Part shown: in pieces, positions 30,001 to 36,000 of the stretch
Layout of the letters: each line of letters begins with the position of its first letter
How positions within the stretch are numbered: the stretch's first letter is position 1
Origin: Escherichia coli
Lineage (GTDB): Bacteria > Pseudomonadota > Gammaproteobacteria > Enterobacterales > Enterobacteriaceae
Length of the DNA stretch: 62,585 bases
NCBI RefSeq assembly: GCF_002854065.1
Contig: NZ_CP024148.1
Strand: one strand, 5' to 3'
Made by a program: the position numbers

Positions 30001-33000
30001 GTCATCGGCATAATGGTGATGGTTATCCCTAAAGTTTATGAAAACATTGAAAACCATCTGAATAATGTTCGCTGGCAGAATGCAGCAGAACACGCAAATA
30101 CCTATAACACCGCTGTTCGTAATTATGTTGCTGACAATGCATCAACACTACTTGCTGGCTCTTTACCCAAAACAATCACGCCAGCAACACTCATTCAGAA
30201 AGGCTATCTGAAATCTGGTTTTTCTGAATCCAATTTTGGACAAAGCTACATTACCGGTATTGCAAAGAACAGCAAAACATCCCGTCTGGAAGCCCTGACC
30301 TGTAGTAATGGCGGTCAGTCCCTGTCAGAAGCCGGAATGCGCTCGGTAGCAAGCATGATTGAAGGGCTTGGCGGCTACATCAACAGCAGCAAGCAGGCGA
30401 TTGGCGCGGGTGGCGGCTGGTCTGACACGCCTTCAAATTACGGGCTGAACTGCGCGACCGGGCATATTGCAATGGCACTTGTTGGCGCTGATTTGCAGGA
30501 AAGCGACCGTTTATATCGTTACTCCATAACCAATCGTCCCGACCTTAACAGGATGCATACGGCGATTGATATGAACAGCAACAATCTGAACAACGTCGGC
30601 ACTTTAAACGGCAACGCCGCCGCGCTCTCCGGCGATATCAGCGCACGTAACGGTACGTTCTCTGGCGCAATTTCAGGAAATACAGCCACAACCAACGGCG
30701 ATATCACTTCGAATAATGGCTGGCTGGTCACAAAAAACAGCAAAGGCTGGATGAACAGTACCTATGGTGGCGGCTGGTATATGTCCGATTCGTCCTGGTT
30801 GCGCAGCGTGAATAATAAAGGGATTTATACTGGCGGCCAGGTAAAAGGTGGAACTGTACGCGCTGATGGACGCCTCTATACAGGCGAGTATTTACAGCTT
30901 GAAAAAACAGCAACGGCTGGCGCTTCCTGCTCCCCTAACGGGCTTGTAGGCCGCGACAGTACAGGGGCGATACTTTCGTGCCAATCCGGTACGTGGAAAA
31001 AAATTGGCGCAGGTGATAGCCAAATTGTTACCGCTTCAGCTACTGCGTGGCGTTGGCCTGGAGCAACGGCAACATGTCCATCTGGCAAGAAAGTCATTGG
31101 TGGAGGCGGTCAATGCAGATCAAATACCGGATTTATATGGCTCACACGTTCCATGCCTTCAGGCAACAATGCATGGACTGCCAGTTGCGACACGACCGAA
31201 GATCAAAATGGTTCAATTACAGTTTACGCCATTTGCCAGTGACGATACTTATCACTGGCAAACCACGATGTAACTACATTTCCCCGACAGGTCAGTTCGG
31301 TGAGTACCGCCATAAAAGTTGTATTCGTCATAGAAGCCGCATTTCACAATTCGATTGGCATCATAGGTTGCAACTGACCCCGCAAAATAATTCGGCTTCC
31401 ACCCGTGCGGATTTTCTGCATTACTGACACTCCAGGTACACTGGCTGGCAGAAAAACCAGATGGCAATGGGATCTGTTGTCCATTTGCTATTTTTCCTGT
31501 CAGAACAGTGCTACCTGATGCCCTTCTCCACGTACCGGATTGGCACGGAGGCCAGTGCCAATCCGGTATCTGGACAACGGCAAAAGTGAACTTCACTACC
31601 AGTACGTACAATATCGGGAAAAACACCCGAAATCTGAGCATTGGCGTACATGCGTACTGTTCGTGGACATACCTTAATGGTGCGCCTTTTGGTGGGTTTC
31701 AGCAGGTATACTCCGACCAAAACAAGGTTTGGTATGTGAATAATTATGCGTGGGGAAATTATGAGTCCGGCGGCACAATTACTGTTACATGCCTGAATCT
31801 TCCTGGTGCTGGGATTTAACCGAAGGGGCAACAATAAGCATCAACGTGTTCCTCATCAACGCCATCACCAATGCCATACATGCGTGTACCTGTCATGATA
31901 AATCCGGTCGGGCATTGAATGGGTTTGTAGTAGATAGATCCTCCACTTTTCCCGCCAATGAAGTGATTCATTGCTACAGATGATTGATACCACTTACAGG
32001 CGGAGTAGTTCACTTTATTGCCACCAGACCACCGACCGGATTGGCACGGAGGCCAGTGCCAATCCGGTGTGTGGAGGGCATTAGGTGGAAAGCTCAAGGT
32101 TACTCAACTTTCCAGCACTGGTTACTTGGGGCAATTTGACTTTTGTGCCATTGCCAGAATGGGAAATGCTGAGGATTCTCATTACTGCCAGGTAGTCGAG
32201 AGTCCATCTGGTTCACGAAAATGGTACAAATACGAGCACAAGACAGGTTGTATTGCGTCCTGTGTAACTCTCAATTAAGTTTGGTATCCAAATACTGAAA
32301 ATACCCCTGAGCCACAAGAGTAGTTTTGGGCCGGATAAGAGGTGATCTGATAAGTTGCGCCAGCAGGGACAGCAAAAGAGATGAATGCTGTCTTCCCATA
32401 AGATGGGTTATTACTCGCATTTGTGCTAATCAATGCCCCTGCAACGTATCCCTGCAATCTGGATGTGTTAGCACAATCTCCCCCGGCGGAACCACCATTC
32501 CCTCCAGAGGCGTAAACAAACAGCGTACCACTTCCCGTATTGCGACCAGTAAATGATCCTCGGTGTGATCCAAGATTACTGTAACTACCGTTAGAGGAAC
32601 CGGAAGTTCTCCACACACCGGATTGGCACTGGCCTCCGTGCCAATCCGGTCGGTGGTCTGGTGGCAATAAAGTGAACTACTCCGCCTGTAAGTGGTATCA
32701 ATCATCTGTAGCAATGAATCACTTCATTGGCGGGAAAAGTGGAGGATCTATCTACTACAAACCCATTCAATGCCCGACCGGATTTATCATGACAGGTACA
32801 CGCATGTATGGCATTGGTGATGGCGTTGATGAGGAACACGTTGATGCTTATTGTTGCCCCTTCGGTTAAATCCCAGCACCAGGAAGATTCAGGCATGTAA
32901 CAGTAATTGTGCCGCCGGACTCATAATTTCCCCACGCATAATTATTCACATACCAAACCTTGTTTTGGTCGGAGTATACCTGCTGAAACCCACCAAAAGG

Positions 33001-36000
33001 CGCACCATTAAGGTATGTCCACGAACAGTACGCATGTACGCCAATGCTCAGATTTCGGGTGTTTTTCCCGATATTGTACGTACTGGTAGTGAAGTTCACT
33101 TTTGCCGTTGTCCAGATACCGGATTGGCACTGGCCTCCGTGCCAATCCGGTACGTGGAAAAAAATTGGCGCAGGTGATAGCCAAATTGTTACCGCTTCAG
33201 CTACTGCGTGGCGTTGGCCTGGAGCAACGGCAACATGTCCATCTGGCAAGAAAGTCATTGGTGGAGGCGGTCAATGCAGATCAAATACCGGATTTATATG
33301 GCTCACACGTTCCATGCCTTCAGGCAACAATGCATGGACTGCCAGTTGCGACACGACCGAAGATCAAAATGGTTCAATTACAGTTTACGCCATTTGCCAG
33401 TGACGATACTTATCACTGGCAAACCACGATGTAACTACATTTCCCCGACAGGTCAGTTCGGTGAGTACCGCCATAAAAGTTGTATTCGTCATAGAAGCCG
33501 CATTTCACAATTCGATTGGCATCATAGGTTGCAACTGACCCCGCAAAATAATTCGGCTTCCACCCGTGCGGATTTTCTGCATTACTGACACTCCAGGTAC
33601 ACTGGCTGGCAGAAAAACCAGATGGCAATGGGATCTGTTGTCCATTTGCTATTTTTCCTGTCAGAACAGTGCTACCTGATGCCCTTCTCCACGTACCGGA
33701 TTGGCACGGTGATATTGCATTTCGAAGCAAGAATCTCTACCTTCCCCCCTTTTTTGTCTGGAGGGGATATGTTTCAGAAAATCAAAATTCGCAAAATGAC
33801 AATCAGCCGGGCGCTGGACAAATACCTGAAGACAGTATCCATCCACAAAAAAGGCCATCTACAGGAGTTTTATCGCGTAAATGTGATTAAACGTCACCCT
33901 ATTGCTGAACGCTATATGGATGACATTACCACTGTTGATATTGCCAATTATCGGGATCAACGGTTGGCGCAAATTAACCCACGAACGGGGCGTCAAATAA
34001 CCGGAAACACCGTCCGTCTTGAACTTGCCCTGTTGTCATCATTATTCAATATCGCCCGTGTGGAATGGGGAACATGCCGCATGAATCCTGTCGAACTGGT
34101 CAGAAAACCCAAAATCAGTAGCGGGCGCGATCGTCGCCTGACTTCAGGAGAAGAACGCCGACTTTCGCGGTATTTCAAAGAAAAAAATCAGGCTCTTTAC
34201 GTCATTTTTCATCTGGCGCTGGAAACAGCAATGCGACAAGGTGAAATCTTGTCATTGCGTTGGGAACACGTCGATCTGCAACATGGGGTAGCTCATCTTC
34301 CAACAACCAAAAACGGTGCTCCACGCGATGTTCCGCTATCCAGGAAAGCCCGTAATTACCTGCAAATGCTGCCGACACAGCTTAACGGTAATATTTTTTC
34401 TTATACCTCTTCGGGATTCAAAAGTGCCTGGCGAACAGCACTTCAGGAACTGAAGATAGAAAACTTGCATTTTCATGACCTCCGTCATGAGGCTATCAGC
34501 CGATTTTTCGAACTTGGTACATTGAACGTCATTGAGGTTGCCGCTATTTCAGGCCATCGCTCCCTGAACATGTTGAAACGATACACACACCTTCGGGCTT
34601 ATCAACTTGTCAGTAAACTCGATGCCCGACGCAAGCAAACCAGCAAAATCGCTCCCTATTTTGTTCCCTACCCGGCAACGGTCGAGAACAGAAACGGGCA
34701 AGTCGTTGTGACTCTGAGTGATTTCGACCTGGAAACAAGCGCAGCCACAAAAGAACAGGCCATATTTCATGCCAGCGTGTTGCTGCTACGAACACTGGCA
34801 CAAGCCGCCCAGCGAGGAGAACGCGTCCCTACTCCTGGCGAACTTCCTACAAACATTGATGAACGGGTAATGATTTGTCCATTAACAAATTAGAGGATTC
34901 ACTTATGATAGAACAACTACAGAGTGATTTTTTATTCTGGATATTTATTTACTTCCTGATAGTAGGTTTGCTTATCAGAAACATTCATCTTACCAGAAAA
35001 ATTAAATCCATCGAAAAAAACAAAATGTTCCCAGCGGAGGAATATGCTGTCCTGGACATTGAACAGCATATGTCCAATAAATATATTGGGCGGCTAGTAA
35101 CCCGTTTTATGAAGAGAACTAATGGTGCACCTTTGTTAATTGTGTTTCCAGAATACGATAAAGGAGACAACAATGAAGACAAAAATTCTCCACCATTCCA
35201 ACTTGGAAAACTAACATCCAACATCAACAATATTAAAGAAATTTATTCCAATGATGACTTAAACTGTTTTCTGAATAATATTTCGGCACAAAAAAATTTA
35301 TATACAACGCACTCTGGACCTAGCCAGGCATGGATTGAACATGCATATCCTTTGCAACAAGTAACTATTCTCTTACAAGGCACTCGTCATAGTGAAAGGG
35401 AAGATATAATCAGTCAACTTGAGATTATTCTTTCCAGACTAAAAAATGGAGAAAATACAGGTTTTGAGCATGACGATGATTTTGGATATTCATTTCAGTA
35501 TGATGCCGCAGCAGTAGGAAAATCATCATTTTTCGATGAAGCGGCAGGAAGAAAATAAGAATAACGCTCTATCCATTGCACAGACAAATTAACGTTAATC
35601 TTTTATGAAAATCTTATTAACAATATTTATTTATCTGCTTACCGCTTTTCAGTCTGCAAATGCAGGTGGAATACCTTATACATTTAACCAGAAAATTCTT
35701 CAGGGGAAAGTTATTCGCGTTCTCGATGGCGACACCATAGAAATTAAAACACTACCCGCAAAAATTGTTGTGTATGAAGTTCCGATCCGAGTCCGATTGA
35801 TAAACATCGATGCCCCTGAAAAGAAACAACCTTTTGGACGCTGGTCAACTAGTCAGCTTAAAACTCTGGTTGCAGGTAAACAGGTGACAGTCTCTTATTC
35901 ACATAAAGACCGCTACGGACGCATTATCGGTCATGTGTTCACGACGAACGGCACGGATGCCAGCCGCTTTATGGTTCAGTCTGGCGCTGCATGGGTATAT

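Follow-up and report, generated by a model that had tools for sequence, protein, structure and literature searches.

The analysed window, the whole stretch of 62,585 bp, is almost certainly the complete IncI2 mcr-1 plasmid p14EC033a (CP024148; 62,585 bp), with which it shares the IncI2 type and ISKpn26 upstream of mcr-1. Between pilV and rci it carries an array of five modules in the order BD-C-A-C(inverted)-BD, bounded by ten perfect 19-bp sfx sites (Table 1). The constant region of pilV ends at the first sfx, and the reading frame runs on into segment BD and stops at 31242 (428 aa). The gene is 100% identical to pilV of pGZ49273; besides the Pfam assignment, a search of PilV against NCBIfam gave no match. 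The recombinase gene rci directly adjoins the invertible array. At the DNA level it shows 100% identity to the genes annotated as site-specific integrases in pGZ49273 and others, and 99.8% identity to the integrase of R721.

Table 1. Features of the shufflon region, from pilV to rci, in window coordinates.
Feature	Position	Strand	Length	Remarks
pilV, constant region	29956..30977	+		Up to first sfx; ORF list, Pfam Shufflon_N, E 3.2e-167
sfx 1	30978..30996	+		GTGCCAATCCGGTACGTGG
Segment BD, copy 1	30997..31527		531 bp	Two convergent alternative PilV C-terminal exons
Double junction	31528..31573			sfx 2 (-), 8-bp spacer GGAGGCCA, sfx 3 (+)
Segment C, copy 1	31574..32028		455 bp	Two unlike sfx, ATC and CGG
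Double junction	32029..32074			sfx 4 (-), spacer GGAGGCCA, sfx 5 (+)
Segment A	32075..32610		536 bp	Single copy, array centre; overlap common to both three-segment states
Double junction	32611..32656			sfx 6 (-), spacer TGGCCTCC, sfx 7 (+)
Segment C, copy 2, inverted	32657..33111		455 bp	100% identical to copy 1
Double junction	33112..33157			sfx 8 (-), spacer TGGCCTCC, sfx 9 (+)
Segment BD, copy 2, direct	33158..33688		531 bp	100% identical to copy 1
sfx 10	33689..33707	-		Final site ahead of rci
rci, shufflon-specific tyrosine recombinase	33769..34893	+	374 aa	Pfam Phage_integrase, E 4e-24

Exact matches to GTGCCAATCCGGTNNNTGG are located at 30978, 31555, 32056, 32638 and 33139 on the plus strand and at 31528, 32029, 32611, 33112 and 33689 on the minus strand. 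The 62.6-kb window holds no further exact match, and 0.02 matches would be expected by chance from shuffled sequences, compared to the ten observed. The sites form inverted pairs with alternating strands, and the right arm always lies on the segment side. Each segment is flanked by the asymmetric site, in which a 7-bp core and a 12-bp right arm make up the 19 bp (site anatomy as in PMC11852207). An in-frame alternative C-terminal exon is present at every segment end. Five of the six ends translate into tails starting CQSG(T/I/R/V)W, while the sixth, at the right end of BD, was read from the ORFs 31252-31641(-) and 33413-33730(-). The Pfam domains of PilV and Rci and the inverted sfx pairs confirm the identification as a shufflon in the preliminary description, whose count of ten sfx sites and five segments, three of them distinct (BD, C and A), also holds. 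The first copy of BD is 100% identical to the sole segment of pMRY15-131_2 (AP017622), which was named BD by Sekizuka 2017 (PMC5430464); non-identical end repeats were reported there for segment C only.

Segments BD and C thus each occur twice. The direct duplication of BD, previously described with an offset of 2161 bp, is exact over 572 bp (30977-31548 and 33138-33709). For segment C, an inverted copy had been recognized and is indeed an exact repeat, although its first copy spans 31574-32028 (455 bp) rather than ending at 32018. The exact match between the inverted copies extends over about 550 bp (31527-32076 versus 32609-33158; 31524-32076 versus 32609-33161 in a second comparison) and takes in both double-sfx junctions of the segment. 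In agreement with the earlier observation, the ORFs 31789-31983(+) and 32702-32896(-) encode identical products of 64 aa each. The spacers of the last two double junctions are the reverse complement of those in the first two.

The components of the locus match the R721-type IncI2 shufflon (R721, NC_002525; mcr-1 IncI2 plasmids, Sekizuka 2017), with the same sfx, 8-bp spacers, rci and pilV constant region, six alternative PilV C-termini, and segments 99.8-100% identical to those of R721. However, six sfx and a single copy of each segment within a pilV-to-rci span of 3,860 bp are found in R721 and in all three-segment relatives that were parsed, while the window has ten sfx and a span of 4,938 bp. 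Each segment is present at most once in R721, pGZ49273, pEco_M22546_62, pHLJ179-167 and pPSS-07_2, and likewise in ten contigs encoding an identical PilV. The more distant shufflon of R64 (IncI1) shares the mechanism and the sfx consensus, and part of the length of its segments shows ~83-85% identity, but it differs in its segment set (A, B, C, D) and lies on another plasmid backbone.

The array was searched for by megablast with the pilV-to-rci region and with the shufflon alone, and no full-length match was listed. Roughly 800 PLSDB and 500 RefSeq E. coli records matched the shufflon region; the five-module array was absent from the best 40 records listed from PLSDB (72,556 records searched) or from the RefSeq complete E. 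coli genomes (5,426 genomes searched). As one segment of a record matches both copies in the query, megablast coverage is inflated, and the spans in the records were used instead. The longest IS-free pilV-rci span among the matches listed was 4,127 bp, compared to 4,938 bp in the window. All junctions in the array are legal and the copies lie more than 600 bp apart, so that no DNA pattern can be diagnostic for it when sequence collections are scanned. With BD and C as queries, 659 places were found in 622 records, 540 in 511 and 415 in 387. The extra places inspected were mostly segments split by IS elements or by the record origin, or hybrid segments, and the only clean duplicates among them were those of pTA147-2 and OW967007.1. 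A literature search combining shufflon and duplication returned nothing relevant.

Different inversion states are seen among near-identical plasmids, which indirectly supports an inversion of the segments in vivo. The preliminary description held that inversions by Rci alone cannot duplicate a segment, and a breadth-first simulation agrees: it reached 192 states, every one exactly 3,860 bp long and with constant content. Any change in copy number, whether direct or inverted, needs something besides Rci. Since Rci can flip any single segment, it is uninformative whether a copy is direct or inverted, and the orientations of copies and spacers, both of which Rci alters, were rejected as evidence on the mechanism.

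The array splits exactly into the front of one three-segment state, S1 (pilV-BD-C-A-rci), and the back of another, S2 (pilV-A-C'-BD-rci), with a shared segment A. Each of the two states measures 3,860 bp, which is the most frequent length of the pilV-to-rci region in three-segment IncI2 plasmids among the database matches listed, and in the simulation three Rci inversions convert S1 into S2. The spacers, two in the orientation GGAGGCCA followed by two in the orientation TGGCCTCC, agree exactly with this decomposition, the copies in both pairs are 100% identical, and the array contains no novel junction. An independent contig (L016, GCA_053264855.1) corresponds to S1 with one mismatch in 3,860 bp.

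The preliminary description envisaged either an amplification or an assembly chimera from a population with mixed inversion states. The evidence speaks for the second of these, and we consider the array likely to be an assembly chimera of two inversion states of one three-segment shufflon. In this reading the locus is an ordinary R721-type IncI2 shufflon, in which Rci would invert DNA between oppositely oriented sfx and thereby fuse the constant part of pilV to one of the six alternative C-terminal exons that segments A, BD and C carry. Each of these segments would occur once in the real plasmid, with the inversion states mixed in the culture. On the pilV side the assembly path may have followed molecules in state S1 and on the rci side molecules in state S2, both paths merging via segment A, the sole module shared in the same orientation. 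A merge through A would account for BD and C being written twice. We infer that this merge took place in the assembler rather than in the cell.

The pipeline behind the record (SOAPdenovo and PacBio RS II/HGAP3) is error-prone at this locus. In the study that reported p14EC033a, the shufflon is visibly corrupted in each of the four sibling IncI2 plasmids. The defects include a consensus of mixed orientation with 76-89% identity, damage to sfx sites, frameshift or truncation of pilV, and a record whose origin falls within the shufflon. Misassembly of IncI2 shufflons in HGAP assemblies of PacBio data, with 'unmapped and redundant coverage regions', has been documented, and many shufflon states were found to co-exist in one clone in PacBio reads (Sekizuka 2017, PMC5430464). 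These published cases involve the same plasmid family, assembler and cause, namely many inversion states per clonal culture, and the deposited sequence represents no real molecule, as is proposed here for the window; a 2015 shufflon report, as far as it is cited in PMC5512495, appears to belong with them. They differ in that segments were deleted or replaced and some regions had redundant coverage; none of them specifically describes a clean BD-C-A-C'-BD merge. The cleanness of the window sequence, with ten perfect sfx and segments 100% identical to reference segments, counts against a chimera; the pipeline would have to have failed here in another way than in the siblings with their noisy consensus. 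Furthermore, with a 10-kb library, long PacBio reads normally cover the entire shufflon, so that a merge via a ~580-bp overlap is less obvious.

The main value of the finding is as a flag on data quality. The deposited shufflon of p14EC033a is probably overstated by 1,078 bp. Where mcr-1 IncI2 plasmids are compared and differences of this kind are counted, spurious structural variation would result; published work has already pointed to this problem.

There is also a biological process that would yield exactly this structure, which weighs against the assembly chimera. In this scenario, an unequal RecA crossover within the 536-bp segment A would join sister plasmids in the states pilV-BD-C-A-rci and pilV-A-C'-BD-rci, and resolution of the dimer would yield one BD-C-A-C'-BD plasmid and one A-only plasmid. 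The array is the exact predicted product and makes a novel junction unnecessary, segment copy number varies in nature (shufflons with BD only, BD+C or BD+A are common), and the 100.0% identity of the window backbone to pGZ49273 over 25 kb speaks for high sequence quality. Nevertheless, we regard a real duplication by this route as rather unlikely. The array is missing among the best matches listed, out of ~800 records in PLSDB and ~500 in RefSeq E. coli with a match to the shufflon region, and the reciprocal A-only shufflon was not met among the loci parsed; the presence of BD in all plasmids reported by Sekizuka 2017 (PMC5430464) also counts against such a product. Direct repeats of 572 bp together with inverted repeats of 550 bp would be unstable to RecA, and Rci should have scrambled a real array during growth in culture. 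The deposited order nevertheless belongs to the 4 that can be decomposed in this way, among the 30 module orders that enumeration gives for a shuffled five-module array. The corruption of the shufflon in all siblings from the same sequencing project likewise argues against it. A real array would keep shuffling, through 15,360 sequence states in simulation, with no new PilV tips; as no adhesin variants are added, the biological consequence would be small. It would still be a modest, concrete case of homologous recombination between inversion states changing segment number: the heterogeneity of inversion states would itself drive segment gain, with segment loss as the reciprocal product, and would account for the differences in segment number between IncI2 plasmids.

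A real duplication could also have arisen from intermolecular or direct-repeat recombination by Rci at sfx, or from replication template switching at the 46-bp junctions, and the repeat boundaries do lie within 1-2 nt of sfx sites. The double-sfx junctions, which are near-palindromes of 46 bp, could favour slippage. For wild-type Rci, the asymmetry of sfx, with a variable left arm and a conserved core and right arm, limits the reaction to inversions, and excision has been seen only with artificial symmetric sites (PMC11852207). A single slip from junction to junction would place the copies in tandem, for example as BD-C-BD-C-A, instead of producing the symmetric array, although later inversions could disguise it. 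No independent support for either process was found, and we consider this origin highly improbable.

Clean modules that are repeated with 100% identity and intact sfx occur in at least two other IncI2 deposits, pTA147-2 (NZ_CP028601.1) and plasmid P4 of E. coli 624 (NZ_OW967007.1). The array of pTA147-2, BD'-A'-BD, can also be read as two legal states merged through A. Both differ from the window in composition, with three modules of 2 types in pTA147-2 and 11 modules of 5 types in OW967007.1. They could equally be read as recurring real duplications, in favour of a RecA crossover. A third record, AP026793.1, is a 1,661-bp 'circular plasmid' consisting of C-BD-A alone. We count the arrays of all three records in favour of the assembly chimera, as walks or cycles of the type that an assembler makes through shufflon modules.

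The shufflon of p14EC033a is a well-known R721-type system whose sole oddity is its copy number. PilV has a Pfam match to Shufflon_N (E 3e-167) and Rci one to Phage_integrase, all six segment ends can supply PilV with another C-terminus in frame, and the segments, rci and the constant region of pilV are 99.5-100% identical to those of the IncI2 prototype R721. Between pilV (from 29956) and rci, ten perfect GTGCCAATCCGGTNNNTGG sites, alternating between + and -, bound five modules, with no further copy elsewhere in the 62.6-kb window (chance expectation 0.02). Modules were named by comparison with the plasmids characterised in Sekizuka et al. 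2017; the assignment follows from the 100% match of module 1 to pMRY15-131_2, which carries BD only, and from C alone having differing end repeats.

Features of the shufflon and the mcr-1 region
Feature	Position	Strand	Remarks
Segment BD	30997-31527		first module; 100% match to the sole segment of pMRY15-131_2
Segment C	31574-32028		only segment with two different end repeats
Segment A	32075-32610		named by comparison with plasmids of Sekizuka et al. 2017
Segment C, inverted copy	32657-33111		
Segment BD, direct copy	33158-33688		
rci	33769-34893		Phage_integrase
mcr-1.1	42669-44294	-	
ISKpn26 (IS5-like) transposase gene	44424-45404	+	directly upstream of mcr-1.1
Relaxase gene	45715-50028	-	

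In agreement with the preliminary description, one segment is duplicated directly and one in inverted orientation, the repeats being exact over 572 bp and about 550 bp, respectively; the coordinates proposed for the inverted pair also hold, except that the end of its first copy, 32018, was a typing error for 32028. The first two 8-bp spacers read GGAGGCCA, the last two its reverse complement. As Rci is able to flip any module, whether a copy is direct or inverted is uninformative. At the centre of BD (31232-31262 and 33393-33423) both convergent PilV exons end in TGCCAGTGA (Cys-Gln-stop), forming an imperfect 31-nt palindrome, TTTGCCAGTGACGATACTTATCACTGGCAAA, which could be a bidirectional terminator.

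Two legal states, overlapped on the segment A that they have in common, together make up the array. Closing the left half straight onto rci gives pilV-BD-C-A-rci (S1), and attaching the right half straight to pilV gives pilV-A-C'-BD-rci (S2), both of 3,860 bp, exactly the length that database IncI2 plasmids with three segments show from pilV to rci. An unrelated contig in GCA_053264855.1 equals S1 with one mismatch. When every Rci inversion was simulated from S1, with the crossover placed in the 7-bp core, 192 states were reached, all of 3,860 bp, and S2 was among them after three steps. The earlier claim that Rci inversions alone cannot make the array is thus borne out, as also follows from its being a merge of legal states with normal junctions only. 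Every junction is possible in a normal shufflon, and sequence alone therefore cannot separate a merge in the cell from one made by the assembler.

Amplification and assembly chimera had both been offered as explanations; we consider the chimera the probable one, in which the assembler would have merged S1 and S2 via segment A. The asymmetry of the sfx sites limits wild-type Rci to inversion, so a real duplication requires another process. The most plausible candidate is a single crossover by RecA inside segment A, joining sister plasmids of which one is in S1 and the other in S2; it predicts precisely the observed array, and the sequence in the window is clean. However, RecA would be expected to destabilise the direct (572-bp) and inverted (550-bp) repeats, and continued Rci shuffling should have scrambled the order; only 4 of 30 enumerated module orders permit a two-state decomposition. 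The A-only reciprocal product of such a crossover was not met among the loci parsed. The poor record of the pipeline at this locus, described below, also counts against a real array, and we regard the RecA route as unlikely and a duplication by other routes as very improbable.

The p14EC033a study combined SOAPdenovo with PacBio RS II/HGAP3 (PMC6206212), and Sekizuka et al. 2017 found that HGAP misassembles IncI2 shufflons because one clone holds many states. Other authors remark that assembly problems of this sort give rise to apparent differences between mcr-1 plasmids. All four sibling IncI2 plasmids of the study have a damaged shufflon: p14EC017a carries BD at 85-89% identity, its sfx sites are broken and its pilV is annotated as a pseudogene; in p14EC020a a 1-bp insertion frameshifts pilV; in p14EC029a BD is a consensus of both orientations; and the p14EC047a record is cut within the shufflon, with C truncated and one sfx missing. 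The window itself is a complete circular IncI2 plasmid, nearly identical to p14EC047a, in which the window ends adjoin each other; ISKpn26 lies between mcr-1 and the relaxase gene, as described for both p14EC033a and p14EC047a, and these features fit p14EC033a (CP024148). The system is a known one and its unusual part most likely an artefact; the p14EC033a record is worth flagging for probable error. Two further observations concern the siblings. No relaxase CDS is annotated in p14EC047a, pointing to indel errors left in that record. In p14EC029a (66.6 kb) an IS200/IS605 tnpA-tnpB unit, accompanied by hicB fragments, is present twice in inverted orientation (2119-3926, 10881-12847), which could be a real inversion/duplication or a further assembly problem.

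The rarity of the array among deposited records also counts against its being real. Each segment occurs once or is absent in R721, pGZ49273 (backbone 100.0% identical to the window over 25 kb), pEco_M22546_62, pHLJ179-167 and pPSS-07_2, and in ten contigs whose 428-aa PilV is identical to that of the window; the five-module array was not found among the best matches listed in PLSDB and RefSeq complete E. coli genomes. In favour of real duplication, two other clean cases are on record among about 180 listed rows sampled with BD alone as query. pTA147-2 (NZ_CP028601.1, 3320-5047) reads pilV-BD'-A'-BD-rci: one A lies between two copies of BD, repeating the window's pattern of merging through A. 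In NZ_OW967007.1 (reverse complement of 1388-7647) the shufflon spans 6.26 kb and comprises 11 modules but only five types, in the order V Z V' X' U Y' V Z X' U Y'; the window lacks the types of 504 and 603 bp. This array reflects either real expansion on a large scale or a path walked by the assembler. The same sample included NZ_AP026793.1 (pIPCEC42_5, 1-1661), submitted as a complete circular plasmid of 1,661 bp. It contains nothing but C, BD' and A, linked through normal double-sfx junctions, and is probably an assembly-graph cycle, not a replicon.

Two IncI2 plasmids from Korean bloodstream isolates contain a hybrid module (CP088666.1, 4417-4951; CP088858.1, about 3996-4451) in which a BD tail, from 420 in one and 492 in the other, is fused to A 1 to about 427, suggesting recombination or misassembly between segments. 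Plasmids of the 60,960-bp class have an additional, fourth module, short at about 248 bp (pHLJ179-167, 2975-3222; pPSS-07_2, 2420-2667) with a variant site, GGGCCAATCC..., on one side; this module accounts for their 4,127-bp pilV-to-rci span. In pHLJ179-167 the sfx adjoining BD has GTG, not ACG; the variable triplet is thus not strictly tied to its segment.
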